64,000 nucleotides of DNA from an uncultured Alphaproteobacteria bacterium. GTDB taxonomy: Bacteria > Pseudomonadota > Alphaproteobacteria > Rs-D84. Shown here one piece after another: positions 9,417-56,734 of this stretch. The stretch covers positions 14,374 to 78,373 of the forward strand of contig CALXMA010000004.1 in assembly GCA_944389345.1 (NCBI GenBank), given 5' to 3'. A program made the position numbers and the translations under genes. Numbering within the stretch: the stretch's first letter is position 1; every line of letters starts with the position of its first letter. The notes under the pieces were generated by a model. It was not told the DNA's origin. It made no database searches and was given only the letters and a program-made list of their open reading frames with translations.

Positions 9417-11204
9417 TTATACAGTTTTTGATTTTTTCAGCAGACTTTGTACCGCCAATGGAAAATCAGCACTGTTGGCCAGGTATGAACCACTGACCAA
9501 TAAATCAGCGCCGGCGGCCCAGCATTTCTGGGCCGTTTGTGCATTTATGCCACCGTCCACAGATATCAAGTATTTGAATCCGCCACGTTTGCGTGCCGTA
9601 TTCAAAATCGAAATCTTGCGCAGGCATGATTCTTGGAATTCTTGGCCCGCAGAACCGGGTGCAACCGCCATAATCATAATTTCATCTATTTCACGTAATA
9701 TCGGTTCCAGTATTTTAATCGAAGAATCCGGATTCAGCGCAATCCCGGCACGACGACCAGATGCGTGGATTAATTTTATCGCAGAACGTACCCCGGATGT
9801 ATTTGTCGATATGATAATCGTATTTGCACCGGCGCGTATTGCGTCTGCGGCCCAAAATTCGGGACTTTCCGTCATCAGGTGTACGTGCAAATGTGCCGTT
9901 GTATGTTTTCGTATGTATTGTAATTCTTCGATACTGCCACGTATGTTTTCAACGTACAGGCCGTCCATAATGTCGACGTGTATCATTGAAATTCCGCCCG
10001 ATGCAAACATAGAATATGTTTCCGGGCGCGACATGTCAAAGCACAATGTACTGGGCAAAACAGGAATAAATTTAGCGGTATTGTTCCGGCGACGTTTGCC
10101 AGTAAACAGCGATGTTATGCGCGACGTGATGTTATGTATGCGCTGACTGCGTGCCAGGTATGCATTGATATGGGCGTTTTCGCGCGACCAGATATATTTG
10201 AACAACGATTGTAACGTGCCGTCGCGCGCGATGTTTTTAACCGGCAGTCCAAATTCGTTTTCTATGAATTCGGATATAGTGTCTATTTCCGAACCACCGC
10301 CAGACAGAATTATCTGTGTCGGGCGACGACGTTGGATTTCCGGACCACAGTGAATGCGTATCTGGGAACAGATTTCAACCATAATTGGTAAAATAACATC
10401 GTTTATGTCCGCACGCGAAAAATCATATTCTGTGTCCGCGGGGGTAAAGCGGTCCATGTCTTTGGGCAACATTGTTGCAACGTTATGTTTTATCCGCTGG
10501 GCGTCTGCGAATTCCAGGCCAAATTTATTCGCGATTTCATTCGTTATATTTGTTCCGCCGATTTCCAGTTTTTTATGAAACATAGGGCCACGGTCTGTCC
10601 AAATTGATACCGTGGTAAATTGGGCGCCCAAATCTATGAACAATGCCGTCGTTTTTTCAGGGCGCAGAACAGACTGTTGTAAAAACTGAGAATCATAAAT
10701 CGCCAGTGGTTGAATGTGTGCCTGGTGTAAAATGGATATTATGTTTTCCAGCGCATCTTTGGAATAAAATATTACACCGAACAGTGATGACAACTGGGTA
10801 TCAATGTATCCAACGGGCGAATTTAAATCCGGTGCGCTGGGGATTTTATAGCGCAATGGAAACATATGCATAGGAAAATATCCATCCGGACAAGATATAC
10901 TGGCAATTTGTGCACTGACGTCCGATGCGGTTATTTTATGTTCGCCGGGCCATGTGGTGTTTTTTTGTTGTTTTTCAAATATGGATGGCCCCAGGTTGCC
11001 CGTTATATATGCGCCGTCAAAATGTTCCCCAATTTTATGTTCCAGTTCGTCAATCACAGATTTCAGTGCAGATACCGTATCCGTACTGTCCACCGTGTGG
11101 ATTGCAGAATCTGTAATGCGACCGGATCGTATATGGTATGCCGTGCCACGGACACCACTTGTCCCCAGGTCCAGACATAAAAAAGCAGAATCTAATAAAT
11201 TCAT
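9417..11204 (-). CDS. ftsA-rpe: Apparent in-frame fusion: short actin-like cell-division protein FtsA (N-terminal ~380 aa) + ribulose-phosphate 3-epimerase (C-terminal ~215 aa)
   Basis: The N-terminal part has ASKHA/FtsA-like motifs: LCLDLGTSGVRGTAY, FIDLGAQFTTVSIW...LEIGGTNITNEIANKFGL and IILSGGGSEIDTISEFIENEFGLPV. It lies directly downstream of ftsQ. The C-terminal part is unmistakably Rpe: SGGISMIHVDIMDGLYVENI..., HLHVHLM, ...MAVAPGSAGQEF and ISVDGGINAQTAQKCWAAGADLLVSGSYL. There is no stop codon between the two parts, so the single ORF is 595 aa. Confidence 0.7.
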   Translation of the reverse strand: MNLLDSAFLCLDLGTSGVRGTAYHIRSGRITDSAIHTVDSTDTVSALKSVIDELEHKIGEHFDGAYITGNLGPSIFEKQQKNTTWPGEHKITASDVSAQIASISCPDGYFPMHMFPLRYKIPSAPDLNSPVGYIDTQLSSLFGVIFYSKDALENIISILHQAHIQPLAIYDSQFLQQSVLRPEKTTALFIDLGAQFTTVSIWTDRGPMFHKKLEIGGTNITNEIANKFGLEFADAQRIKHNVATMLPKDMDRFTPADTEYDFSRADINDVILPIMVEICSQIRIHCGPEIQRRRPTQIILSGGGSEIDTISEFIENEFGLPVKNIARDGTLQSLFKYIWSRENAHINAYLARSQRIHNITSRITSLFTGKRRRNNTAKFIPVLPSTLCFDMSRPETYSMFASGGISMIHVDIMDGLYVENIRGSIEELQYIRKHTTAHLHVHLMTESPEFWAADAIRAGANTIIISTNTSGVRSAIKLIHASGRRAGIALNPDSSIKILEPILREIDEIMIMAVAPGSAGQEFQESCLRKISILNTARKRGGFKYLISVDGGINAQTAQKCWAAGADLLVSGSYLANSADFPLAVQSLLKKSKTV

Positions 11205-12755: not shown

Positions 12756-14099
12756 ATGAAAATAATCAGACACTTGTTTAATCTTTGCGCGCTGGTCGGT
12801 GGCGTCGGGTTGTTGTTTGGTTGCACACCGCGCCAAGAAAACGTCCCACAATATGATACACTGAATGTCGTAGAAAATTTTGTCATAGATGAAAATTCTG
12901 TGCCGATTTTTCCGAAAAAGGCCGCGTTGACAACCGATACCGCGCAACGGTTTTCCATAGAATTACCAAAACGCTGTACGGTCGATTGGAATAACCAGGC
13001 CGTCGTTTCCGTTGTTCCCGAAGAACCTATTGAAATTGTGCGCTTGGGTGTTGGTGATGAATTACCAGAACTGGCCGTGTCGGACTATGAATTTCGTCAA
13101 CTGACCGTGAAAGAGGCGTTGGATAAATTATTAGAAGGCACAAATATTTCGGTAATAGAAGATGGCGAATTAACGGAAACTATATCGGGGTCTATTACGT
13201 CGGGTAATTTGGCGGATTCTGTGGAATTGATGTCAAAAATGGGGCGGGCGTATTATTCGTATGACGCAGAAAACCAGGAAATACATCTGGACCATCGGGC
13301 AAAGTGGTTGTTAAAGATGCCGAAAAATGAAAGTATTATAATGGCGCTGTTGGATGCAATGCATGGCGCAGATATGCGGAACTTGTTGGTGGATTGGCAA
13401 GACAAGACCGTCGTTTTCGAAGGAAATTATCAGACCGAACGCGAAGTCGCGAAAATATTGGCAGATGTGGCGTCTAAGAAATATATGATTGCGTGGGATA
13501 TTGATGTATATCGTGTGTATCCGCGTACGGATAATCCTATTATATGGATGAATTTATTGCCGGCGTTTGGCGATAAAAATGTCAAAATGTCTGTGCCGGG
13601 TGTTGTGGGGCGCGCGTTGGTCGTGGGACCAGAAATTAATACCAAGACGTTGCAAGAATTTTTATCGCAACAATCTAATGTTGTGTTGATTTCCCAGGGT
13701 ACGTTCGTAATTCCAAACGGATGGCAATCGCGGTTTGATATTGGGCAATGCAGTAAAGAAGACAGACTGGAAACAGACCTGGTCATCGGGGCCAAGGCAA
13801 CGTACGGCGATTTCGGTGGCAAGAATAAAATTGATGCGAAAATAGTTTTACGTACCAGCAATGGGGAACTGTCATCGTTTACTATACCGTCCGATGTTGG
13901 TGATAACTATGTGATTATTGGTATACCAACGCATTCATTTGTGACAACGCCAGAAACGTTAATCAGTCCATTCGCGGAACTGGTTGTGTTTATGTCGCCA
14001 CGTATTATTTCTATTGTTGACGCAAATACAACGCCGATTGCAGATGGTACAGAAGTACCACTGGTCGGTGATGCGTTGCGTAGTTTTCTGAGTGAATAA
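12756..14099 (+). CDS. Lipoprotein with secretin-like C-terminal region (uncertain), co-transcribed with lolCD
   Basis: 447 aa. There is a signal peptide with a lipobox (LLFGC|TPRQ). A middle segment, ...LTVKEALDKLLEGTNISVIEDGE..., resembles secretin N-domains. A C-terminal segment, ...GTFVIP...DLVIGAKATYGD...ELVVFMSPRII, resembles the secretin C-domain motif (E-L-l-i-f-i-t-P-r-i) but is shorter than a canonical secretin. Its stop overlaps the lolC start. Confidence 0.5.
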   Translation: MKIIRHLFNLCALVGGVGLLFGCTPRQENVPQYDTLNVVENFVIDENSVPIFPKKAALTTDTAQRFSIELPKRCTVDWNNQAVVSVVPEEPIEIVRLGVGDELPELAVSDYEFRQLTVKEALDKLLEGTNISVIEDGELTETISGSITSGNLADSVELMSKMGRAYYSYDAENQEIHLDHRAKWLLKMPKNESIIMALLDAMHGADMRNLLVDWQDKTVVFEGNYQTEREVAKILADVASKKYMIAWDIDVYRVYPRTDNPIIWMNLLPAFGDKNVKMSVPGVVGRALVVGPEINTKTLQEFLSQQSNVVLISQGTFVIPNGWQSRFDIGQCSKEDRLETDLVIGAKATYGDFGGKNKIDAKIVLRTSNGELSSFTIPSDVGDNYVIIGIPTHSFVTTPETLISPFAELVVFMSPRIISIVDANTTPIADGTEVPLVGDALRSFLSE

Positions 14100-14109
14100 G
14101 GAATCTGTT

Positions 14110-15363
14110 ATGTTTTCAAGGTTGGAACGAAAAATCGCATTCAGATATTTGGCCGCAAAAAAACGCGGTTTTGGTTCTGTTATATCTTGGGTGTCGCTGA
14201 TAGGGATTACGTTGGGGGTGGCGACACTGATTGTGGTTATGTCTGTTATGGGCGGTTTTCATGATACGCTGTTGTCGCGTATCGTTGGTATGAATGGGCA
14301 TGTTGTTGTTTATCACCAGGATGGTGCAATTACGGATTATGACTTTTTAATTGATAAAATGCGCCAAAACAAGGTGGTGGCAGAACACGCAACCGGAATT
14401 GTGCCAATCGCCGAAGGTCAGGTTATGGCCACCGCAAATGGAAATAATACCGGGGCCATGATACGCGGTATACGTATGTCTGATTTGGCGAAAAAGGTTG
14501 ATACTGGTACACGAATTTATGGCAAGCCTTTGGATAAAATTACCGATGGTGAATTGGTTGCGGGGGCGTCATTAACACGGGCGTTGCGTGTTGGTATGGG
14601 GGACAATATTTCATTGGTTTCGGCCAATGGGGCAACCCCAACACCGTTCGGGTCTATGCCACGGATTATGGCGTATCCAGTTATGTCTTCGTTCTTTATG
14701 GGAATGTATGAATATGATTCAGGTTATATTTTTATGCCATTGGATACGGCGCAAAAATATCTGAATATACCAGGGGCCGTAACGCATATTGATTTGTTCT
14801 TGGATAATCCCGAAGAAACGACAGACGTTCGCGAAGCGTTGACACGTCTGTTGCCTGATGGTTTTGTTGTGCGTGATTGGCGCGAATTGAATCGCGGGTT
14901 TGTTGGCGCATTACAGGTTGAATCAAATGTTATGTTCTTGATTTTGATGCTGATTGTTATTGTGGCCGCGTTTAATATTGTGTCCAGTTTGGTTATGTTG
15001 GTCAAAGATAAATCCAAAGATATTGCCGTGTTGCGGACGTTTGGTGTGTCGCGTCGTTCTATGATGAAAATATTTATCTTGTCCGGGACCAGCATCGGAA
15101 TTCTGGGGGCGTTTTTTGGTACGCTGTTTGGTGTTTTAATTGCGATATATATTGAACCTATACGGCAATTTTTCCAGTGGGCAACCGGGCGCGATTTGTT
15201 TCCGGCGGAATTGTATTATTTGTCAGAACTGCCATCGAAATTGGTTTTGACCGATGTTGTTGGAATTGCGTTGATTGCCGTGTTGTTGGCGTTTTTGGCA
15301 ACGCTGTATCCCGCGTGGAAGGCCGCCAGTACAGACCCTGTGGATGTGTTGCGCAATGAATAA
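14110..15363 (+). CDS. lolC: Lipoprotein-releasing system transmembrane permease LolC/E (single-permease type)
   Basis: It reads MFSRLERKIAFRYLAAKKRGFGSVISWVSLIGITLGVATLIVVMSVMGGF, which parallels the E. coli LolC N-terminus. It has the MacB-like periplasmic domain and a C-terminal FtsX helix bundle. The start is chosen at the Met with an AAGGA ribosome-binding site. Confidence 0.85.
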   Translation: MFSRLERKIAFRYLAAKKRGFGSVISWVSLIGITLGVATLIVVMSVMGGFHDTLLSRIVGMNGHVVVYHQDGAITDYDFLIDKMRQNKVVAEHATGIVPIAEGQVMATANGNNTGAMIRGIRMSDLAKKVDTGTRIYGKPLDKITDGELVAGASLTRALRVGMGDNISLVSANGATPTPFGSMPRIMAYPVMSSFFMGMYEYDSGYIFMPLDTAQKYLNIPGAVTHIDLFLDNPEETTDVREALTRLLPDGFVVRDWRELNRGFVGALQVESNVMFLILMLIVIVAAFNIVSSLVMLVKDKSKDIAVLRTFGVSRRSMMKIFILSGTSIGILGAFFGTLFGVLIAIYIEPIRQFFQWATGRDLFPAELYYLSELPSKLVLTDVVGIALIAVLLAFLATLYPAWKAASTDPVDVLRNE

Positions 15364-15379
15364 AGAAAGGAATACAAGA

Positions 15380-16090
15380 ATGGCGAACATATTGAATTCT
15401 TTGTCAAAGGTACCAAAGGGCGACGTTGTGTTGTCTGTGCGCGATATTAAAAAGACTTTTATCGAAGGTGGACAACCGTTGCATATCTTGCGCGGGGGCG
15501 GATTTGATTTACGACGCGGGGAAATTATTGCGCTGGTTGGGCCGTCGGGCAGTGGTAAATCCACGTTGTTGCAATGTGTTGGTTTGTTGGATAAACCAAC
15601 CGGGGGCAGTATTTTGCTGGCGGGGACGCCTGTGCAGAAAATGGATGATGAAATGCGTACCATGATGCGTCGGCGCAAGATAGGATTTGTTTACCAGCGA
15701 CATAATTTACTGGCGGATTTTACGGCGTTGGAAAATGTTGTTTTACCCATGTTGGCAAATGGTGTGGATGAACGTACGGCGTCTGCGCGGGCAATGAAAT
15801 TGTTGCAATCGGCCAATGTTGCACACAGGGCGTCTCATTTGCCGGGGGAAATGTCGGGCGGGGAACAGCAACGTACCGCCGTCGCACGGGCGTTGGCAAA
15901 TGATCCGGAAATATTGCTGGCTGATGAACCAACCGGCAGTTTGGATCCGGCACATGCAACCGCTGTGTTTGATTTGTTGTTGGATTTGGTGCGCAAGAAA
16001 AAAATGGCTATGTTGTTTGTGACGCATGATATGAATTTGGCGTCGCGTGCAGACAGAAAAATTACAATCAATGACGGGATTGTGGAATAA
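15380..16090 (+). CDS. lolD: Lipoprotein-releasing system ATP-binding protein LolD
   Basis: ABC ATPase motifs are present: Walker A GPSGSGKST, the LSGGEQQR signature and Walker B ILLADEPTG. The start is at MANILNS (15380) with an AAAGGA ribosome-binding site. The ORF track begins upstream inside lolC. Confidence 0.9.
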   Translation: MANILNSLSKVPKGDVVLSVRDIKKTFIEGGQPLHILRGGGFDLRRGEIIALVGPSGSGKSTLLQCVGLLDKPTGGSILLAGTPVQKMDDEMRTMMRRRKIGFVYQRHNLLADFTALENVVLPMLANGVDERTASARAMKLLQSANVAHRASHLPGEMSGGEQQRTAVARALANDPEILLADEPTGSLDPAHATAVFDLLLDLVRKKKMAMLFVTHDMNLASRADRKITINDGIVE

Positions 16091-16137: not shown

Positions 16138-16848
16138 ATGAAAAAAGCAGGCAAGGCACCTGTGAAAAAGACAGGTAAAAAAGTTCAAGATTGTCCGATT
16201 AATTGTTGCAGTACCGCGCATAAGGTGTGGAGTGCTGTTGCATTGGCGGGGTTGTTTGCGTGCGGTTTGATTTTGGGGTTGACGTATAATCAAACAGATG
16301 CGGTTCAGGCAAAGATGGATGCACAACAGTGTGATGCAATCGCAAATGAAATTGTTAATATAACAACAAACGGCGCAACACCAGAAAATATCGATACGCT
16401 GAATGAATTAAATCAGGCGTATTTGGACGGATGTGCGGGACGGTTGGTCGTTATTGAAAAGCCTGTGGTGAAATCAATTGCGTCGCGCCCAGAAATTGTT
16501 TCTACGTGCGACAGAATTGAACAATTGTTGCAAAAACGTCTGTACCCAGAAGATAACCCAGAATACTGGAAACATTTGGCAAACGCCGATACGTACAGTA
16601 CTTTGGCCGACAGGGGGTGTGCGGAAAATTCAGAAATGTATAAAACGTTGGCGTTGCGGGAATTGGATATTGCAACGGCGTTGAAACCAACGGAATCTAT
16701 GGGAACGCGTGATGCAGAAATTGTTATCGATACGTTCAAGAAATTAGATATGCAACAAGAAGCACGTGAATTCTTGGGCAAAGTAGAAAAACTGATAGAT
16801 CCGGCAACCGATTTTATCTTGCAAATGGAACAGATTATCAATGAATAA
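16138..16848 (+). CDS. Membrane-anchored extracytoplasmic protein with two Cys-bracketed repeat units (unrecognised family); gene A of a 4-gene operon
   Basis: 236 aa. It has a Lys-rich N-terminus (MKKAGKAPVKKTGKK) and one TM helix (WSAVALAGLFACGLILGL). Two repeat units follow: C-DAIANEIV...YLDGCAGR and CDRIEQLLQKRLYPEDNPEYWKHLANADTYSTLADRGCAEN. Gene D is a paralogue. Confidence 0.6.
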   Translation: MKKAGKAPVKKTGKKVQDCPINCCSTAHKVWSAVALAGLFACGLILGLTYNQTDAVQAKMDAQQCDAIANEIVNITTNGATPENIDTLNELNQAYLDGCAGRLVVIEKPVVKSIASRPEIVSTCDRIEQLLQKRLYPEDNPEYWKHLANADTYSTLADRGCAENSEMYKTLALRELDIATALKPTESMGTRDAEIVIDTFKKLDMQQEAREFLGKVEKLIDPATDFILQMEQIINE

Positions 16849-17512
16849 AATAAAATTGAAATTTTTATGTGCCGTGTTGTCTTGTGTTGCGGTTGCGCCC
16901 GCAATGGCGGAAACCACAACGGAATTGCGCACGGACTGTACCGAAATACAATCGCGTATCAGTGAACTGGCCGCAATTACAGAACCAGATGATGCGACAA
17001 AATCTGAACTGGCACAATTACAGGCGGTGTATCGTCGGGATTGTTCAAAGCCCGCCGCAGGTCGCAGAACAATTGGGCGCGTGTCTATGGCGGCGTCGGC
17101 AACACCTGTGGCCGCAACCGCAACTGTGGACACAACCCCAGAAACTGTTGTTGTCACGGTCGCAAATTTGTTGGATGACTATTTGGACCAGCGTCGCGAT
17201 TTGTGTGCCGAATTGGCTGATGATATAGAAATGTTGGCCGATAATAATGCGTCTGATGCGGAATTAGAACCTTTGCAAAATCAGTACAAGGCAGATTGTG
17301 AAGACGTTGATCATTCAAAGACCGTGGATATAGACCCAGAAGTGGCCGCCGCAAATGTGGCACGGGGACTGTGCACAGATGGTTCAAAGCCCAATGAATA
17401 CGGTTGCTGTGATGGGGAACGGTTCACAGATATGGGAAATTTGGTGTTTGCGTGCTGTCCCGAAGATGGGGGCGAATGCTATCCACCTATTAATTCGGGG
17501 ACAAAATTATGA
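16841..17512 (+). CDS. Secreted Cys-rich protein: signal peptide + two Cys-bracketed helical repeats + C-terminal 6-Cys module ending YPPI; gene B
   Basis: 223 aa. The signal peptide is MNKIKLKFLCAVLSCVAVAPAMA|ETT. Two repeats are DCTEIQSRISELAAITEPDDATKSELAQLQAVYRRDC and LCAELADDIEMLADNNASDAELEPLQNQYKADC. The C-terminal module reads CTDGSKPNEYGCCDGERFTDMGNLVFACCPEDGGECYPPI. The gene overlaps gene A by 8 bp. Confidence 0.6.
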   Translation: MNKIKLKFLCAVLSCVAVAPAMAETTTELRTDCTEIQSRISELAAITEPDDATKSELAQLQAVYRRDCSKPAAGRRTIGRVSMAASATPVAATATVDTTPETVVVTVANLLDDYLDQRRDLCAELADDIEMLADNNASDAELEPLQNQYKADCEDVDHSKTVDIDPEVAAANVARGLCTDGSKPNEYGCCDGERFTDMGNLVFACCPEDGGECYPPINSGTKL

Positions 17513-17754
17513 AGAAAATCTATGTGGTTTTAATCGCAATTGCATTGTTTGTGTGTGGTGGAATTACCGGATATGTAATTGCCGTATGTGCCGGAAACAG
17601 TGCACATAGCGCCGATATAGATATTACGTGTATAGATGGCAGTATGCCCGATGAAAATGGTTGTTGCGCGGGCGAGGTTTATACCGATATGGGTGATTTA
17701 GGGTTTAATTGCTGTCCGCCGGGTGATGGGGATTGCTATCCACCAATCAGATAA
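17509..17754 (+). CDS. Small (81 aa) membrane-anchored/secreted Cys-rich protein carrying the same C-terminal 6-Cys module; gene C
   Basis: It has an N-terminal hydrophobic segment (MKKIYVVLIAIALFVCGGITGYVIAVCAG). It then carries CIDGSMPDENGCCAGEVYTDMGDLGFNCCPPGDGDCYPPI, which is co-linear with the C-terminus of gene B (C-x9-CC-x14-CC-x5-C-YPPI). The start overlaps the gene B stop (ATGA). Confidence 0.55.
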   Translation: MKKIYVVLIAIALFVCGGITGYVIAVCAGNSAHSADIDITCIDGSMPDENGCCAGEVYTDMGDLGFNCCPPGDGDCYPPIR

Positions 17755-17775: not shown

Positions 17776-18642
17776 ATGAGAGAGAAAGTAAAATCAGAAA
17801 AGGCAGTACGTGCACCACGTCGTCGCCGTGTGTGGCCGTGGGTGTTGGTTTTGTTAATTGTTGTATGTGGGTCTGGGGCCGTGATTCTGCATGAATTGGG
17901 GTATTTGAAATGGCGTGGAATAGATGCCGTAATAAATACCGTTATGCCGAATGACGAAAATATCAATATAGTGGCAACAGATGTTGCGGTTGCGCCCGTT
18001 GATACTGTCCAGGTCGCAGATGCGGAAAGTTCAGATATCGTTATTCGGCCCGCATGTGCCGTTATCGAAGACGCATTGTTGGCGCAAATCGTTGATGATG
18101 ATAACCCAGATTGGCAGGCACAATTTGATTCTTCGCGTGTGTATGCGACGTTGGCCCAGCGGGGATGTGCCCAAAATGCCAAGTTTTTCAGCGATATGTC
18201 TGTGCGTAAACAAACCATAGCCGAAGGATTGCGCGCGGTATATGACCAGGGCAGTGATGAAATGACGTCTGTTGAATATCTGTATTCAGATGAAAAAATA
18301 TGCCAGACAATCGAAAATCGTGTATTGCAAAATATAAACGTGAACGCGTATTCTTATGATGAATTCTTGCGCAATGCGAATACGTATTCTGTGTTGTATG
18401 AATATGGATGTCGCGATAATAAAATGGCGTATTCGCGGGCATCTATTCGTGAACTGGCAATCGCGTTGGCATTGGTGCCGGCAGACAAAATGACCCAAGA
18501 CGAAATCATAACGGTGATAGAGGTGTATAAACGTCTGGGCGCACCGACGTTGGCACATTTGGTTTTGCAACGCTTAAAGGCCCGCGGGTATGATATGGAT
18601 TTCTTGTTAAGCCTGGAAGATATCATTCATGGCATGCGATAG
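17776..18642 (+). CDS. Membrane-anchored extracytoplasmic protein with two Cys-bracketed repeat units (paralogue of gene A); gene D
   Basis: 288 aa. It has an Arg-rich N-terminus and a TM helix (RRRRVWPWVLVLLIVVCGSGAVIL). The two repeats are CAVIEDALLAQIVDDDNPDWQAQFDSSRVYATLAQRGCAQN and CQTIENRVLQNINVNAYSYDEFLRNANTYSVLYEYGCRDN. A GGAGGAG ribosome-binding site is present. Confidence 0.6.
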   Translation: MREKVKSEKAVRAPRRRRVWPWVLVLLIVVCGSGAVILHELGYLKWRGIDAVINTVMPNDENINIVATDVAVAPVDTVQVADAESSDIVIRPACAVIEDALLAQIVDDDNPDWQAQFDSSRVYATLAQRGCAQNAKFFSDMSVRKQTIAEGLRAVYDQGSDEMTSVEYLYSDEKICQTIENRVLQNINVNAYSYDEFLRNANTYSVLYEYGCRDNKMAYSRASIRELAIALALVPADKMTQDEIITVIEVYKRLGAPTLAHLVLQRLKARGYDMDFLLSLEDIIHGMR

Positions 18643-18975: not shown

Positions 18976-19062
18976 GGGCGTGCGCCGGAGTTGGAGAGCC
19001 GGGGCAGACTGTAAATCTGTTGGCTTAAGCCTGAGGTGGTTCGAATCCACCCACTCCCACCA
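18976..19062 (+). tRNA. tRNA-Tyr (anticodon GTA), class II with long variable arm; possibly slightly aberrant
   Basis: GGGCGTGCGCCGGAGTTGGAGAGCCGGGGCAGACTGTAAATCTGTTGGCTTAAGCCTGAGGTGGTTCGAATCCACCCACTCCCACCA. The anticodon loop is CTGTAAA and the long variable arm is typical of Tyr. The T-loop is the canonical TTCGAAT and CCA is encoded. Two oddities are C rather than U at position 8 and a C4:U69 mismatch in the acceptor stem. Confidence 0.65.
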
Positions 19063-19305
19063 AAACACAAACCGACCGAATGGTCGGTTTTTGTTTTGTG
19101 ATGGGGTGGTGAGATGAGAACCACTGGTTCGACAATGAGTAGATTTGACAAGCACCGCGCGGTCAAATCGTTAGGAATGCCCCACAGCCGGCGTGATAAC
19201 GCCGTGCGAGGGAATCCACCCACTCCCACCAAAACACAAACCGACCGAATGGTCGGTTTTTGTTTTGTGATGGAGTGGTGAGATGAGAGCCACTGGTTTG
19301 CAATA
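19043..19305 (+). repeat. Two copies (19043-19136 and 19212-19305; ~94 bp, 3-4 mismatches) of a segment comprising the tRNA-Tyr 3' end + rho-independent terminator + ~45 bp; period 169 bp
   Basis: GAATCCACCCACTCCCACCAAAACACAAACCGACCGAATGGTCGGTTTTTGTTTTGTGATGG(G/A)GTGGTGAGATGAGA(A/G)CCACTGGTT occurs twice. The terminator hairpin is CCGACC-gaat-GGTCGG followed by TTTTT. The second copy lacks the 5' part of the tRNA, so it is an att-like scar or a tandem duplication. Confidence 0.7.
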
Positions 19306-35136: not shown

Positions 35137-36234
35137 ATGGCAAAAAAAGAAGTCGCAAAAGATGTTTCGGCACCGGCAAAAAATCCGGCGTTGGAATCTG
35201 CGTTGGCACAAATTCAAAAGCAATTCGGTAAAGACGCAATTATGAAAATGGGCGATGGGTCCCAGCAGGGGATTGAGGCTATTTCGTCCGGGTCTTTGGG
35301 ATTGGATATCGCGTTGGGAATTGGTGGGTATCCGCGCGGGCGAATTGTTGAAATTTATGGTCCGGAAAGCAGTGGTAAAACCACACTGGCATTGCATGCC
35401 GTGGCCGAAGCGCAAAAAAAAGGTGGGACTTGCGCATATATTGATGCGGAAAATGCGTTGGATCCGTCGTATGCAAAAAAACTGGGTGTTGATGTCGCAA
35501 ATTTAATTATATCCCAGCCGGATTCCGGGGAACAGGCGTTGGAAATTGCCGATACGCTGATTAAATCTGGGGCGGTTGATGTTGTTGTTATCGATTCGGT
35601 TGCGGCACTGGTGCCCAAGGCGGAATTAGAGGGTAATATTGGTGATTCTTTTGTTGGAACAACCGCGCGGTTGATGTCGCAGAGTTTGAAAAAATTGGCG
35701 GGGTCTGTGTCGCGCAGTAATACGCTGTTAATCTTTATTAATCAAATCCGTATGAAGATTGGGGTTATGTTTGGAAACCCGGAAACGACATCTGGGGGGA
35801 ATGCGTTAAAGTTCTATGCGTCGGTGCGTCTGGATATTCGTCGCACGGGTCAGATTAAGGATAAAGAAAACGTTATCGGTAATGAAACGCGTGTTAAAAT
35901 TGTTAAAAACAAGGTTGCGCCACCATTCCGTACCGTCGATTTCAAAATTATGTATGGCGAAGGTATTTCCCGTATCAGTGAAATTCTGGACATGGGGGTA
36001 AAGTACGATTTTATCGAAAAAGCCGGCAGTTTTTATTCTTATAATAATGAACGTATGGGCCAGGGTGAAAATAATGCGCGTCAATGGTTGCGCGATCACC
36101 CAGATGTTCAACAGGAATTGTTAGATAAAATTATGGCGCGCGCAAATGGTATCGCCGAAGAAATGACAACGGGGCCGGCCGATGACGATGATGTTGTCGG
36201 ACAGGATGTGGCGCCGGTTGAAGGGGATTTATAA
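35137..36234 (+). CDS. recA: Recombinase RecA
   Basis: Walker A is GPESSGKTT. Further motifs are ...[17 protein letters not shown]..., the L2 loop region ...[35 protein letters not shown] and an acidic C-terminal tail. The start is taken at MAKKEV (AAGGGGAA lies 6 nt upstream). Confidence 0.97.
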
Positions 36235-36247
36235 AAAAGGGGTAAAT

Positions 36248-37153
36248 ATGAATTTGGCCAGAATTTGGACTCTGTCGGGTGTGGTTTTGCGTGGGCATGT
36301 GTTGAATTGGTTTTGGCGGGACCGTGCCGTGCGTCATGATATTCGTGGCGATGTAATAGGAACGGCGTTGCCAAAATATTTTCGGCGCTATTTATCAGCA
36401 GTTGAACGTATGCCCGTCAGAAGTGTGGTCAAAGACGATGCAAACGAAAAAATATTTACCATCTGGTTACAGGGCGAAGACAATGCGCCACCGTTGGTCA
36501 AGGCCTGCTATCGCAGTGTGCGAAAGCATTGCAAGCAAGAATTGGTGGTGTTGGACGAAAAAACGTTGCCACAATATATTACTCTGCCAGATGTAATTAT
36601 GAAAAAACGCGCCCAGGGAAAAATTAAAAACGCGCATTTCGCGGATATTTGTAGGGTGGAATTATTATATAAGTATGGCGGTTTTTGGTTGGATTCAACC
36701 GGATTTGTTACCGCACCAATTCCTGATTGGATTGTGAATGAAGATTTCTTTGTGTTCATGGCGGGGCACGCGGGCAGTCCGTACAGTTTTATACAAAACT
36801 GTTTCATTCGGGCGCGTCGGGGTGCGTATTTGCTGGATGCGTGGCGGGCAATGATTCTGGATTACTGGACCCATGAAAACAGCAACTTTGATTATTTTAT
36901 GCACCAATTAATGTTCAAGACATTGGTCATGTATGACGAACGTGCAAAAAAAGAATTCGCCAAAATGCCACATGTCGACCAAGATCCGACCCATGCGCTG
37001 TGGTGGGAATATTGTGATAAGCCGTTTAATCAAAAAACATTTGATTCTGTTGTGGCGCCCGTGTTCTTTCAAAAGACTACGTATGCCCAGGCTAAAAATC
37101 CAATCCCGGGCAGTTTCGCAGATGTTATGATTAATAAAATGAACCAAGACTGA
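36248..37153 (+). CDS. Capsular-polysaccharide-synthesis-like glycosyltransferase (DxD sugar-binding type)
   Basis: It has ...IFTIWLQGEDNAPPLVKACYRSVRKH... and ...YKYGGFWLDSTGF..., which resemble the Caps_synth/Gly_transf_sug family. The start is at MNLARIW (AAGGGG ribosome-binding site). The ORF track start lies inside recA. Confidence 0.6.
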   Translation: MNLARIWTLSGVVLRGHVLNWFWRDRAVRHDIRGDVIGTALPKYFRRYLSAVERMPVRSVVKDDANEKIFTIWLQGEDNAPPLVKACYRSVRKHCKQELVVLDEKTLPQYITLPDVIMKKRAQGKIKNAHFADICRVELLYKYGGFWLDSTGFVTAPIPDWIVNEDFFVFMAGHAGSPYSFIQNCFIRARRGAYLLDAWRAMILDYWTHENSNFDYFMHQLMFKTLVMYDERAKKEFAKMPHVDQDPTHALWWEYCDKPFNQKTFDSVVAPVFFQKTTYAQAKNPIPGSFADVMINKMNQD

Positions 37154-37170
37154 TGCGGGGGGAAATAGGT

Positions 37171-38205
37171 ATGCCGGAAATTTCTGTGATTATCCCTGTG
37201 TACAATGTGGAAAAGTATCTGCGTCGTTGTTTGGACAGTTTGTTGGCCCAGACATTTACCGATTGGCATGCGATATGTGTAAATGACGGCAGTGTGGATA
37301 AATCTGGGGAAATTTTGGCCGAATACGCACAACGCGATTCGCGTTTTACCGTGGTGAATATTCCAAATTCTGGGCCCGCATGTGCGCGAAATGTTGGTAT
37401 AGAACGGGCCCAGGGAAAATACGTAATGTGTGTTGATGGGGATGATTTTATTCATCCCCAGACAATGGAAATCGCGCATTTCTTGGCCGTGCGGGATGGG
37501 TCTGATATTGTGTCTTTTACATATGACAGATCGTATCGTCCTTATTTAATGGTGCGATATAAATTGGGGTTGGGGATAGAAAATATCGAACCGCTGGGGA
37601 TTCGGCGTCGGTATCGGCCCGCGGCGGTGCGGACGTTGGTGACGGATGATATTTTTGCCTATGCGACAGAACAGACGCATAATGCATTTAATCCAAAGCG
37701 CAGGTGGCTGATTAAGCATACGCAGGTTTGGAAAAATTTGTATAGGCGCGATTTAATTGCAGATGTAAAATTTATTGATGGAATTTTGTACGAAGATTTC
37801 CCGTGGTGGTCGGCGGTCATGCTGAAAAATCCGCGGGTGACAATTGCGCCGTTGCCGTTGTATTATTATGTGCCGAATTTTGGCGGAATATTCTTGTCCG
37901 CCGGCCAGATGCGTGCGTTTGATGGAATGTGTACGGGTGTGCGGGATACTTTTTTGTTGTACCAGGCCAAAGCGAGCCCGTATCAAATGCAACAATGGTC
38001 CAAGAACTTTAAGTGGTATTTTATCAAGTGGGCATTTAATAAAATTAAATATTTTACCAGTGTGGCGGATTTGAACAAGGCGCGCAATTGGTTCAGGGAA
38101 CTGGACAGAATTGGGGCGTTGGATAGTCCGCATAACAAAAAAACAAAAAAACTGCGTCAGAAAATTTGCGCGTTTATAAAGGATTGCCACCAAAATGACA
38201 GATGA
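37171..38205 (+). CDS. Family 2 glycosyltransferase (GT-A), paralogue 1 of 3
   Basis: It has ISVIIPVYNVEKYLRRCLDSLLAQTF...ICVNDGSVD...MCVDGDDFIHP (DxD). The start is at MPEISV. The 3' end contains an A7-C-A7 tract (38138-38152). Confidence 0.85.
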   Translation: MPEISVIIPVYNVEKYLRRCLDSLLAQTFTDWHAICVNDGSVDKSGEILAEYAQRDSRFTVVNIPNSGPACARNVGIERAQGKYVMCVDGDDFIHPQTMEIAHFLAVRDGSDIVSFTYDRSYRPYLMVRYKLGLGIENIEPLGIRRRYRPAAVRTLVTDDIFAYATEQTHNAFNPKRRWLIKHTQVWKNLYRRDLIADVKFIDGILYEDFPWWSAVMLKNPRVTIAPLPLYYYVPNFGGIFLSAGQMRAFDGMCTGVRDTFLLYQAKASPYQMQQWSKNFKWYFIKWAFNKIKYFTSVADLNKARNWFRELDRIGALDSPHNKKTKKLRQKICAFIKDCHQNDR

Positions 38206-39244
38206 CAAACCAAAAATTTCAGTAATAATTCCAATATACAATGTGGAAAAATATTTGCGTCGCTGTTTGGACAGTATGTTGTCCCAAACATTTACCGATT
38301 GGCAGGCGATATGTGTAAATGACGGCAGTCCTGATAACTGTGGTGAAATATTATCAGAATATGCCGGACGTGATGGTCGTTTCAAAATAGTAAACAAAGA
38401 AAACGGTGGGCTGTCTGATGCGCGAAATGCGGGTATGCGTGTTGCAGACGGCGATTTTATTTTATTTTTAGACAGTGATGATTTTATTCATCCGCAAACA
38501 CTGGAAATCGCATATTTTCTGGCCACGCGTGATGGCACAGACATTGTTTCTTTTACCTATGATCGCGCGTTCAGAACGGAACTGATGGTGCGTAATAAAC
38601 TGGGGTTGGCGTGCGATGGGGTTATGCCGAAAAAATATAATCGTCGGTATCAGATTGCACAAATAAAAACGTTGGTTACCGACGACGTTTATGCGTATGC
38701 AACCGAACGCACCCATAATGCATTTAATCCAAAGCGCAGGTGGCTGATTAAGCATTGTCAGGTTTGGAAAAATTTATATCGGCGTGAACTGATTTCAGAT
38801 ATTCCTTTTATTAAGGGGATTTTATTCGAAGATTTCCCGTGGTGGTCGGCGGTCATGCTGAAAAATCCGCGGGTGACAATTGCGCCGTTGCCGTTGTATT
38901 ATTATGTGCCGAATTTTGGCGGGATTGTTTTGTCGGCTAAACAGTTGCGTATTTTGCACAGTTTGTGTGATGGTATGGAATATGCGTACAAGTTATACAG
39001 CACGCAGGCCACAGAATATCAGGCGCGTCAATGGAATTACAATTTTAAGTGGTTCTTTATAAAGAAGATTTTGCGTAAAACAAAATACTTGGATAATCGG
39101 GTGGATTTGAATTCTGCGCGGGAACGTGTTTGTGAATTGGAAAAAATTGGCGCGTTGGATAATCCGCCGTGTCGGTGGGCGCGACGTGTGCGGTGTCGTG
39201 TGTGTCATTTTATAAAGGATTGTTGTAAGCATGTCAAAGCGTAA
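38195..39244 (+). CDS. Family 2 glycosyltransferase, paralogue 2 of 3 (mosaic: 5' third identical to paralogue 3, central block identical to paralogue 1)
   Basis: It has KISVIIPIYNVEKYLRRCLDSMLSQTF...NDGSPD...LFLDSDDFIHP. The DNA at 38207-38511 is identical to 39243-39547, and 38828-38922 is identical to 37792-37886. Confidence 0.85.
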   Translation: MTDDKPKISVIIPIYNVEKYLRRCLDSMLSQTFTDWQAICVNDGSPDNCGEILSEYAGRDGRFKIVNKENGGLSDARNAGMRVADGDFILFLDSDDFIHPQTLEIAYFLATRDGTDIVSFTYDRAFRTELMVRNKLGLACDGVMPKKYNRRYQIAQIKTLVTDDVYAYATERTHNAFNPKRRWLIKHCQVWKNLYRRELISDIPFIKGILFEDFPWWSAVMLKNPRVTIAPLPLYYYVPNFGGIVLSAKQLRILHSLCDGMEYAYKLYSTQATEYQARQWNYNFKWFFIKKILRKTKYLDNRVDLNSARERVCELEKIGALDNPPCRWARRVRCRVCHFIKDCCKHVKA

Positions 39245-40253
39245 ACCAAAAATTTCAGTAATAATTCCAATATACAATGTGGAAAAATATTTGCGTCGCT
39301 GTTTGGACAGTATGTTGTCCCAAACATTTACCGATTGGCAGGCGATATGTGTAAATGACGGCAGTCCTGATAACTGTGGTGAAATATTATCAGAATATGC
39401 CGGACGTGATGGTCGTTTCAAAATAGTAAACAAAGAAAACGGTGGGCTGTCTGATGCGCGAAATGCGGGTATGCGTGTTGCAGACGGCGATTTTATTTTA
39501 TTTTTAGACAGTGATGATTTTATTCATCCGCAAACACTGGAAATCGCGCACAAGTACATTGTACAAAATAACGCAGATGTGTTTTTGTTTGGGTATGATG
39601 AAAAATCGCACCGTAAATTATTACGGTTGATGCGGGGCGGGTTTGATGTGTCGGGGTGTGTGCCGGGGGCGGTGAGCAGAAAATACAATATCGATGGCGT
39701 GCATGTGCACAAGATAAAAAAATTATTGTTTCACTGTACCGAACGAAATCGTACTGTGCGGGTTTTGCATCCTGTGCGTCGGCATTGTTTCCCGGTGTTG
39801 GCATTGTATCGACGTGATTTCATTTCTGATTTGCCGTTCGTGCGTGGAATTATATATGAAGATTTTGTTTGGTGGTCTTTATTGATTCTGCGTCGGCCCA
39901 AGACGGTTATGACAAAATTACCGTTGTATTTTTATATGCCGAATCCGACGTCTATATTAAATGCATCGCGTGCGTTGCGGGTGGTGAAATCATTATGTGA
40001 TGGAATTGGTATTGTTTACGATGCGTATTCTGTGAATGCGACGGGGCGCGAATTAAAGCATTATATGCGGGAGTTTTTGTGGCCGTTTACATTCATCGCA
40101 ATGCAACATGCACGCCAGATTACAGACGAAAAAGACCGGGCCATTGTGGCAGATAATTTGAAAAAATTATACAGCGCGGGTGTGTTTGATAATCCACCGA
40201 ATCGGCGCGCACGGCGGTATCTGGGGCGAATACGGGATTTTATAAATAACTAG
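39231..40253 (+). CDS. Family 2 glycosyltransferase, paralogue 3 of 3
   Basis: The N-terminal 100 aa are identical to paralogue 2. The C-terminal two-thirds have diverged (...VFLFGYDEKSHRKLL...). Confidence 0.85.
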   Translation: MSKRKPKISVIIPIYNVEKYLRRCLDSMLSQTFTDWQAICVNDGSPDNCGEILSEYAGRDGRFKIVNKENGGLSDARNAGMRVADGDFILFLDSDDFIHPQTLEIAHKYIVQNNADVFLFGYDEKSHRKLLRLMRGGFDVSGCVPGAVSRKYNIDGVHVHKIKKLLFHCTERNRTVRVLHPVRRHCFPVLALYRRDFISDLPFVRGIIYEDFVWWSLLILRRPKTVMTKLPLYFYMPNPTSILNASRALRVVKSLCDGIGIVYDAYSVNATGRELKHYMREFLWPFTFIAMQHARQITDEKDRAIVADNLKKLYSAGVFDNPPNRRARRYLGRIRDFINN

Positions 40254-55228: not shown

Positions 55229-56734
55229 ATGAGAATCGCAAAATTCTGGGTGTTTTTGTTTTTAATCCTGGGGGTGGTGCCTTGTCGTGCAGACAGTTTG
55301 TTCTTTGAAGATGAACCTGTGCAAGACGGGTTAAATGTTTTTGATGTTTCTGCGACGTTTGCCGATATTTATCAAAAATTAGACAGTGTAAAATGGGGCG
55401 GAAAAAACATAAATGTTGCAATTGAAAGTTTGGAAAAATTAAATCCAAATGCGCATATTGCCGCCACAGATGAACGCGTTGTGTTGGTATGGAAAGACGC
55501 AATTATTGCGAACTATCCACGACCGGAACCCGGTGATTGGAACGGTTTTGGGGAAATTACAACGGCGTTGGTGTTGAAATTACGTGCAAATGATGTGGCG
55601 TTGCATAATGCCAGCGAAAGTCAGATGTACCAGATGGTCGTCGACAGTTTAATGCGCGGAATTGATGAAAATGGTCGATATATTTATTCGCGCCAGGCCG
55701 AAATCAATGAAGATGGGCGGATATTAACCAGTGTCGGATTAGAAGGTGTGCGCGATTCGCGTGGCAATTATCGGGTGGACGGGATATACAAGGGATCGCC
55801 CGCGGACATTGCCGGTATTCGCGAAGGCGATTTGATTGTTGAAATTAACGGTGTGGCCGTGGCGGATATGTCTGATGCGGATTTGTCCGGGGTGATGTCT
55901 GGATTTAATTCGGGGACGGCGAAAATTAAGTTGCTGAATCCCGCCGGGGAAAAAGATGTCGTATTGCGTCGTGCAACAATCGTGTTGGCGGATGCAGATA
56001 TTGTTCATCGCAGTGATCCAGAATTTGGCGGATTATTAGAGATTGTCGTTCACAGAATTACAGATAATGCAACACAAATTGTAAATGAAGCATTGGCGAA
56101 ATATCCAGATGTTTCCGGGATTATATTGGACTTGCGGGCGGCAACCGGTGATGATGAACGGGCCGCCGCAAAGTTTGCGGGTTTGTTTGTTGGTGCACGC
56201 CCAGTTATGCGAATCGTTGAAACCGCCATGGATGAAGTAGAGGTTATCCCCGGGGGCAGTGCGGTTACAGATGCGCCGGTGGTTGTGTTGATGTCTAATA
56301 TGACGCGGGGCACCGCCGAGGCCATAGTTGCCACATTTTATGAAAATGAACGTGGGGTGTTGGTTGGAACGCCAACCGCCGGCAGTGCGCGAATCGCGTC
56401 ACGGGTGAATCTGGAAAATGGCGGGGCGTTAGAGTTATTGAACAAGGCTATTAAAACAGGTTCGGGGCGCGTTATTGATGGACGTGGAATTTTTCCCATT
56501 GTTTGTTTGTCGAATATTCGGTCTGTGAATCAACAAAATGCTTTTTTCTTGAACGTTATAAATAACGATTTTAATTCCAAAGATTTTAACCAAGAACCAG
56601 ATGTTGATGTGGATGCGATTCGTCGGGGGTGTCCGGTTATTACCAGTGGCGCCGATGAAGATGCGTTGTCAACGGCGGTGGCGGTTAAAATACTGACCGA
56701 TGAAAAGGTCTATAATAAATTGGTTGCAGAATAG
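55229..56734 (+). CDS. S41-family C-terminal-processing peptidase homologue with PDZ domain (catalytic residues possibly non-canonical)
   Basis: It has a signal peptide. The PDZ domain reads ...GSPADIAGIREGDLIVEINGVAV. The S41 core reads ...GIILDLRAATGDDERAAAKFAGLFVG... The expected Ser/Lys dyad regions read TRGTAEAIVA and TPTAGSARI. Confidence 0.6.
   Translation: MRIAKFWVFLFLILGVVPCRADSLFFEDEPVQDGLNVFDVSATFADIYQKLDSVKWGGKNINVAIESLEKLNPNAHIAATDERVVLVWKDAIIANYPRPEPGDWNGFGEITTALVLKLRANDVALHNASESQMYQMVVDSLMRGIDENGRYIYSRQAEINEDGRILTSVGLEGVRDSRGNYRVDGIYKGSPADIAGIREGDLIVEINGVAVADMSDADLSGVMSGFNSGTAKIKLLNPAGEKDVVLRRATIVLADADIVHRSDPEFGGLLEIVVHRITDNATQIVNEALAKYPDVSGIILDLRAATGDDERAAAKFAGLFVGARPVMRIVETAMDEVEVIPGGSAVTDAPVVVLMSNMTRGTAEAIVATFYENERGVLVGTPTAGSARIASRVNLENGGALELLNKAIKTGSGRVIDGRGIFPIVCLSNIRSVNQQNAFFLNVINNDFNSKDFNQEPDVDVDAIRRGCPVITSGADEDALSTAVAVKILTDEKVYNKLVAE

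Follow-up and report, generated by a model that had tools for sequence, protein, structure and literature searches.

Two neighbouring genes in a 64,000-nucleotide stretch of chromosome from an uncultured alphaproteobacterium of the order Rs-D84 (assembly GCA_944389345.1, contig CALXMA010000004.1, positions 14,374 to 78,373; hereafter, the window) encode proteins that carry the same six-cysteine module at their C-termini. These genes, which we call B and C, reveal a new domain family that is restricted to one lineage and, unexpectedly, connected with VirB10: in related genomes the module recurs at the end of a VirB10 protein and of a large coiled-coil membrane protein. We regard it, with about an even chance of being right, as a new periplasmic docking domain, probably locked by disulfides, that links its carriers to one another or to a partner they share in the envelope; the docking role, that partner and the disulfide bonds are what we infer.

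A shared module in genes B and C

In B the module occupies residues 178-217 (CTDGSKPNEYGCCDGERFTDMGNLVFACCPEDGGECYPPI), and in C residues 41-81 (CIDGSMPDENGCCAGEVYTDMGDLGFNCCPPGDGDCYPPIR). Residues 178-217 of B and 41-80 of C align without a gap and are identical at 26 of 40 positions (BLASTP, E 7e-18), a resemblance well beyond chance that bears out the proposal in a first-pass annotation of this DNA that B and C share co-linear six-cysteine modules at their C-termini. The cysteines fall at 178/189/190/205/206/213 in B and at 41/52/53/68/69/76 in C, and the consensus is C-x10-CC-x14-CC-x6-C-[YF]PP[IML], about 41 residues long; the spacing first given, C-x9-CC-x14-CC-x5-C, was one residue short in its first and last loops, and the module of B begins at nucleotide 17372, three nucleotides before the start at 17375 originally assigned to it. 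Both proteins were also thought to end in YPPI. They do share that motif, but B runs on for six extra residues (NSGTKL) and C terminates in YPPIR, its C-terminal arginine being the end of the module. A tblastn search of the window found no third copy beyond B and C.

A rare and strongly constrained family

A search of 5.8 billion clusters with the aligned B and C proteins returned 127 homologues, while a HMMER profile built from 55 module fragments and run over 1.84 billion representatives matched 278 representative clusters at E<=1e-3 (138 at E<=1e-10). The family is rare. When the recovered proteins were re-aligned to the profile they yielded 277 module instances, with the six cysteines aligned in 246; the other 31 are mostly internal copies with a shorter first loop, in which the first cysteine is merely shifted, along with a few truncated fragments. 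Every complete copy keeps all six cysteines and no natural variant missing a cysteine pair occurs among the 277 instances, so that the expectation that homologues would retain the six residues has held. Further near-invariant positions are P7, G11, E16, D20, G22, F26, P30 and P38-P39.

Codon comparisons point the same way. For the module of C set against 76 C-type homologues, the median proportions of synonymous and nonsynonymous differences (pS and pN) are 0.84 and 0.14, and for that of B set against 18 B-type homologues they are 0.78 and 0.16. The module is a genuine domain under strong purifying selection, and the values for C settle in its favour the early question of whether this small gene is really coding. 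Between the B and C modules of the window themselves pS is 0.80, which makes them old paralogues.

All named sources are gut metagenome-assembled alphaproteobacterial genomes, labelled Candidatus Enterousia, 'Alphaproteobacteria bacterium' or 'uncultured Rickettsiales', a few of them probably mis-binned, and the products of all named homologues are annotated 'hypothetical protein'. When one genome for each GTDB species was scanned with eight C-type modules as query, 298 stretches were confirmed; the counts of locus types given below rest on the 80 genome loci listed. No copy was found on viral contigs, and a phage origin of the module was rejected on that ground. Enterousia has been placed in the uncultured order Rs-D84, and its genomes are reported to be of about 0.75-1.0 Mb, without a tricarboxylic acid cycle or a respiratory chain (PMC12306168).

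Predicted fold and comparison with known families

An AlphaFold2 model of B built from 47 orthologues has a mean predicted local distance difference test (pLDDT) score of 80, rising above 90 in the module, where a beta-hairpin (193-197/203-207) lies between the two CC pairs; its helices (33-44/51-68 and 107-134/139-159) form helical hairpins at both of the cysteine-bracketed stretches that precede the module. The model of C, from 56 orthologues, has a mean pLDDT of 85, with 82-89 in the module, and places the same beta-hairpin (57-60/66-69) between the CC pairs.

Neither sequence nor fold leads to a known family. Foldseek found nothing significant in the PDB (best E 2.8, to granulins and knottin toxins, with a template modelling score of about 0.2), neither the B+C profile nor the module profile had a significant match among PDB sequences (the best was a tetraspanin, E 0.84), and the 55 module fragments run against Pfam at E<=10 gave only noise (Granulin for 3 of 55, best E 0.085; DUF2650 for 7 of 55). 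With no significant match to a curated family or solved structure in Pfam, NCBIfam or the PDB, the module fits its first description as compact, conserved and outside any known family. We take it to be a previously undescribed domain family, which could merit a curated domain entry of its own, and it would represent a compact new six-cysteine scaffold without a structural neighbour.

Two kinds of cysteine-rich mini-domain deserve comparison. Granulins, or epithelins (PF00396), share with the module their vicinal CC pairs, a 'CCP' motif, a 'CPDG'-like start and hairpins between the CC pairs, and are its top Foldseek neighbours, though not significantly so. B and C have no Pfam match at E<=0.1 and granulins were not retrieved from the PDB sequences; the stacked beta-hairpin fold with its ladder of 12 cysteines is not seen in the module. 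Homology was rejected, hhalign giving a probability of 0.84% over 10 columns against seven human granulins. Knottins resemble the module in having about 40 residues, six cysteines, probably three disulfides and a small beta-hairpin core. The knottin framework is C-C-CC-C-C, however, whereas that of the module is C-CC-CC-C; there is no significant structural match; and in every carrier the module closes an anchored or larger protein and does not stand as a free peptide preceded by a propeptide. Membership of the knottin or inhibitor cystine knot class was rejected on the cysteine framework and the want of a significant structural neighbour.

Carriers of the module

The module is overwhelmingly a terminal and extracytoplasmic feature: in 246 of 248 proteins the chain ends 4-11 residues after the last cysteine of the module, and a hydrophobic signal peptide or anchor precedes the module in 214 of the 243 carriers that start with methionine, the exceptions being mostly gene-call fragments. 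Four types of carrier recur, the B type, the C type, VirB10 and a large membrane protein. B-type carriers (about 170-280 residues) consist of a Sec signal peptide, a helical hairpin, a low-complexity linker, a second hairpin and the module. In gene B itself the Sec-type signal peptide comprises residues 1-23 (AMA|E), and the cysteine-bracketed stretches run from C33 to C68, both invariant, and from C122 to C153, with the low-complexity linker between them. About 60 orthologues share 31-98% identity with B, which has no match in Pfam or NCBIfam. In distant orthologues (P0034, P0049, P0051-P0053, P0056-P0060 and P0067) one or two internal copies of the module, with a shortened first loop of roughly C-x4-6-CC, take the place of the second hairpin, and the module has therefore been shuffled within the family.

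These internal copies bear on the possibility that the module serves as a tag for sorting or processing at the C-terminus, read by a dedicated machine, for instance one that hands periplasmic cargo to type IV secretion, as with pertussis toxin, or one that carries out proteolytic maturation. Some type IV secretion systems are known to take periplasmic substrates, the module sits at the extreme C-terminus of 246 of 248 proteins and occurs on otherwise unrelated ones, and a gene for an S41 C-terminal processing protease is present in the window at 55229-56734. We nevertheless find this quite improbable, since a VirB10 structural subunit and membrane-anchored proteins also bear the module and are impossible as cargo, distant B orthologues have internal copies, and no dedicated sortase-like gene is conserved beside any carrier.

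C-type carriers (about 70-100 residues) begin with a basic N-terminus and a single transmembrane helix, from which a linker of about 10-15 residues leads to the module. Gene C has a 24-residue transmembrane helix, within a helix that is continuous over residues 2-27 of the AlphaFold2 model. Both glycines of its G17-x3-G21 (GxxxG) motif are at least 90% conserved among 56 C orthologues, and GxxxG is present in 52 of 64 small homologues; the sole invariant column in the N-terminal part of the C alignment is Met1. The weak lipobox-like sequence LFVC noticed at first has not survived comparison, Cys16 lying in the middle of the helix and not being conserved among 59 small homologues, and lipoprotein identity was rejected for want of a conserved lipobox ([LVI][ASTVI][GAS]C) at the end of a signal peptide. 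The alignment of small homologues contains no conserved cleavage site or double-glycine motif before the module, and, with the residues ahead of the first module cysteine likewise not conserved, nothing points to a processing site. C is predicted to be a small inner-membrane protein anchored by its N-terminus, neither a lipoprotein nor a leader peptide, and the earlier picture of a stand-alone peptide with a leader gives way to the transmembrane helix and its conserved GxxxG. That motif fits helix-helix packing in a membrane complex, and its conservation suggests that C is itself a subunit of one. A VirB7-like type IV secretion lipoprotein, which would usually be encoded in the virB cluster directly ahead of virB8, was also rejected, C having no lipobox and being encoded after lolCD-A-B, outside the virB8-9-10 cluster.

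The same features bear on the proposal that C is the precursor of a secreted, disulfide-rich toxin, bacteriocin or signalling peptide of 4-5 kDa. C is small and cysteine-rich, and vicinal CC pairs like its own occur in some animal toxins; the non-significant Foldseek neighbours include knottin toxins as well as granulins; and the closest relatives have an A-H-S-like motif after the helix that could be a signal-peptidase site. To set against this, GxxxG is conserved within the transmembrane helix, the sequence leading up to the first cysteine is not, the same module is found on VirB10 and on large membrane proteins, viral contigs lack it, and the locus is single-copy and syntenic in a housekeeping region across the order. 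No immunity, modification or C39-peptidase gene or C39-type exporter lies nearby, the adjacent ABC system having a LolCE equivalog as its permease and LolD as the best match of its ATPase. A class II bacteriocin with a double-glycine leader was rejected separately, there being no GG motif and no C39 domain, and the flanks consisting of the A/D paralogues and tRNAs. We disfavour the peptide precursor and assign it a very slight probability. The first-pass annotation had offered a toxin-like or bacteriocin-like peptide or a ligand-binding knob, and it is the knob that comes closest to the data; the anchor, neighbours, synteny, other carriers and missing viral copies all argue against the toxin or bacteriocin.

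The third carrier type, found in related genomes outside the window, is on its domain scores and gene order a true VirB10/TrbI protein. These carriers (about 770-850 residues) have an N-terminal anchor, a long spacer, a TrbI domain, some 200 cysteine-containing residues and the terminal module. TrbI (PF03743) scores 66.1 bits in P0174 and 65.6 bits in the open reading frame (ORF) of locus L010, well over the gathering cutoff of 35, and the carriers P0099 and P0105 also bear PF03743; the NCBIfam VirB10 model matches the module-bearing VirB10 with a score under its equivalog cutoff. Genes for VirB8, CagX/VirB9 and TrbI are consecutive in L010 and the cluster recurs in L082, the module-bearing virB10 standing downstream of virB8 and virB9/CagX, between rplKA and yidC. 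VirB10-type loci account for 55 of the 80, and among those 80 a B-C locus and a VirB10 locus occur together in at least 7 assemblies.

In its N-terminal anchor, long periplasmic spacer and position after virB8 and virB9, the module-bearing carrier is like other VirB10/TrbI proteins (PF03743, NF038091). Canonical VirB10 ends shortly after the TrbI barrel, whereas here about 200 cysteine-containing residues continue beyond TrbI and the six-cysteine module comes last. B and C, for their part, have no TrbI domain, and no VirB protein is encoded in the window. A VirB10 with a cysteine-rich C-terminal knob would be an unusual design for a core complex. The VirB9/CagX protein encoded beside the module-bearing VirB10 (L010:4095-5639) is also long, at 514 residues, and over its last 40 or so residues it matches SPOR, a peptidoglycan-binding domain, with a score of 21.0 bits (E 4e-4) that equals the Pfam cutoff; a VirB9-SPOR fusion, seen at this one locus, would be unusual.

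The fourth type (700-850 residues; P0164 and L065) has about 570 cytoplasmic coiled-coil residues, one transmembrane helix, a Pro/Glu-rich periplasmic spacer and the module, and its gene (L065:5586-8126) follows gcrA directly, with a prepilin-peptidase-like gene nearby. The N-terminal cytoplasmic domain (EYNI-GN-FRAYYD...KLVFV-D) is conserved, and homologues of this domain of P0164 are only lineage-specific, unnamed relatives. The architecture is reminiscent of polar-organising proteins, to which no homology was found. With its single transmembrane helix, Pro/Glu-rich spacer and small C-terminal domain, the P0164 type is also laid out like TonB and TolA, which suggests that contact with a distal partner is made by the module, as the 'business end'. 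The likeness does not extend further, for the module has no sequence or fold similarity to TonB_C or to TolA domain III, and the cytoplasmic coiled-coil domain of about 570 residues is wanting in TonB and TolA.

This layout also suits another explanation, that the module is a lectin-like knob which binds a glycan or lipid, and so tethers envelope proteins to the peptidoglycan or outer membrane and not to a protein partner. The module would sit where TonB/TolA/PodJ-like layouts put a distal binding domain, after the spacer in P0164 and at the distal end of VirB10; aromatic and acidic residues are conserved in it (F/Y18, F26, F/Y37, E16 and D20), and weak sub-threshold matches to carbohydrate-binding and defensin-like cysteine domains were seen. 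It shows no significant similarity to carbohydrate- or peptidoglycan-binding families, however, the VirB9 of the cluster already has a SPOR-like C-terminus (on a score equal to the cutoff), and in C the module stands only about 13 residues off the inner membrane. We consider such an anchor unlikely, though it is the most plausible of the rivals set out here, followed in order by a metal-binding cluster, a sorting or processing tag and a toxin peptide.

A proposed periplasmic docking domain

The favoured reading, a disulfide-locked docking domain, can be put as follows. B would leave the cytoplasm via Sec to become a soluble periplasmic protein and C would be held in the inner membrane by its N-terminal GxxxG helix; with B exported by Sec and C anchored at its N-terminus, both would therefore present the module in the periplasm. 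There it would most likely fold as a small beta-hairpin knob with three disulfides, and would dock B, C, VirB10 and the large coiled-coil protein onto one shared envelope partner, or onto one another. The outer-membrane core of the VirB8-10 type IV secretion system would be the most concrete candidate for that partner. Because the module is terminal, extracytoplasmic and invariant in its cysteines on four unlike carriers in very small genomes, a modular interaction domain fits best.

That the cysteines of the module should be oxidised is consistent with its surroundings. A, B and D (A and D being the genes on either side of B and C) have conserved cysteine pairs, as would be expected in an oxidising periplasm, and because these pairs stand around 30-37 residues and coincide in B with predicted helical hairpins, they argue that this periplasm makes structural disulfides. 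The alternative is that the six cysteines and the conserved aspartate and glutamate bind metal (Zn, Cu or an Fe-S-like cluster), making the module a periplasmic metal-binding or redox-sensing cap in place of a disulfide-locked fold. Vicinal CC pairs are common in metallothionein-like sites, and E16 and D20 are nearly invariant. Yet the module has no CxxC or His ligand motifs; the signal peptide of B is of the Sec type and not twin-arginine, hence B would not be exported pre-folded around a cofactor; the bracketing of 30-37 residues by the pairs in A, B and D is a pattern typical of structural disulfides; and AlphaFold2 predicts the hairpin confidently without a ligand. The reported lack of a respiratory chain (PMC12306168) could limit DsbB-dependent oxidation and is a point for metal. 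On balance metal binding seems improbable to us.

Several considerations weigh against a disulfide-locked docking domain. Its binding partner and its disulfides are both things that we infer. The B-C locus adjoins lolCD, not virB genes, and the 45 ORFs of the window that were scanned, which matched only housekeeping Pfam families or nothing, include no type IV secretion gene and no Dsb gene. The module of C lies about 13 residues from the inner membrane and that of VirB10 is expected near the outer membrane, so that a single fixed location for the partner is not obvious. Lastly, the lineage is reported to be without a respiratory chain (PMC12306168), which puts re-oxidation by a DsbB-type oxidase in question.

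It is also conceivable, though decidedly unlikely, that the module is a lineage-specific assembly tag, whereby VirB10 carries a copy at its distal end and C, B and the large coiled-coil protein dock at the core of the type IV secretion system, either copy-to-copy or on a receptor that they share. If true, this would mean both new accessory subunits and a new mode of recruiting them in an uncultured, genome-reduced gut lineage that is probably dependent on other cells. More generally, a strongly constrained domain on several envelope proteins, in genomes of only about 0.75-1 Mb (PMC12306168), is likely to be important for construction of the envelope, and possibly of type IV secretion.

The B-C locus and other features of the window

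Coordinates of the locus are collected in Table 1. The window is ordinary chromosome, with aspS, uvrB, ftsA/ftsQ, lolCD, recA, ruvABC, typA, serS, mutL, secDF, ftsK and lptF/G, and B and C stand near the end of a tightly packed string of genes that begins with a predicted lipoprotein. The permease of this string is a LolCE equivalog (410.8 bits against an NCBIfam cutoff of 362), and the ATPase has LolD as its best NCBIfam match (247.6 bits, under the cutoff of 307.75). Genes A-D and the lipoprotein have nothing significant in Pfam or NCBIfam; the lipoprotein has a weak sub-threshold match to STN (secretin/TonB N-terminal; E 0.012) and otherwise no Pfam, NCBIfam or PDB relative. All 84 homologues of D are 244-342 residues long, lineage-specific and unnamed, none with a Pfam domain.

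Table 1. Genes and modules of the B-C locus, in window coordinates
Feature	Position	Strand	Basis and remarks
Lineage-specific predicted lipoprotein (LLFGC), 447 aa	12756-14099	+	Heads the gene string; sequence, synteny
lolC/E	14092-15363	+	Pfam FtsX/MacB_PCD; NCBIfam lolCE
lolD	~15356-16090 (start uncertain)	+	Pfam ABC_tran; LolD best NCBIfam match
Gene A, 236 aa, N-terminally anchored membrane protein, C65...C99 and C124...C161 (C-x33-36-C)	16138-16848	+	Conserved upstream of B in syntenic loci
Gene B, 223 aa: signal peptide, two Cys-bracketed helical hairpins, linker, module	16841-17512	+	ORF, orthologues, AlphaFold2
Six-Cys module, B-type: KPN-x-[FY]GCC...GNLVFACCP	17372-17491	+	Sequence, AlphaFold2, Cys invariant in 47 B orthologues; followed by 6-residue tail
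Gene C, 81 aa: basic N-terminus, predicted transmembrane helix ~4-27, 13-residue linker, module	17509-17754	+	ORF, AlphaFold2, orthologues
Six-Cys module, C-type: PD-x-NGCC-x-GE-x-YTDMG-x-x-GFNCCP	17629-17751	+	Sequence, AlphaFold2, Cys invariant in 56 C orthologues
Gene D, 288 aa, paralogue of A with an N-terminal membrane anchor	17776-18642	+	A vs D E 1e-13; after C in closer relatives only

The order lipoprotein-lolC-lolD-A-B-C is kept in 22 of 23 B-C-type loci, the 23rd being on a short contig, and holds down to B orthologues of about 33% identity; B and C lie side by side in 21 of the 23 syntenic loci listed. The end of A overlaps the start of B by 8 nucleotides and the start codon of C overlaps the stop codon of B (ATGA), so these genes are probably translationally coupled. 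No convincing terminator was found between lolD and D, and the string ends at genes for tRNA-Gly and tRNA-Tyr.

A, B and D each hold two stretches bounded by a conserved cysteine pair (C-x30-37-C), and each stretch ends in Y/L-x2-4-[DG]C; those of B are at 16937-17044 and 17204-17299. The A-B-D cluster looks like an expansion of one cysteine-bracketed hairpin unit that lies outside known families.

Three further observations concern other parts of the window. An 87-nucleotide direct repeat (19043-19129 and 19212-19298; 98% identical, with a spacing of 169 nucleotides) has its first copy starting within the 3' end of the tRNA-Tyr gene (18976-19062), and each copy contains a strong 9-bp hairpin followed by a run of T; the repeat could be a duplicated tRNA 3' end plus terminator, as left by an integrating element. 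On the reverse strand, positions 9417-11204 hold one ORF of 595 residues with FtsA/PilM-like actin-fold matches at residues 186-323 and a full ribulose-phosphate 3-epimerase domain at 387-575, which looks like an ftsA-rpe gene fusion or a lost stop codon. Finally, positions 36182-40253 encode a capsule-synthesis-type glycosyltransferase followed by three tandem paralogues of family-2 glycosyltransferases, each of about 340-350 residues.

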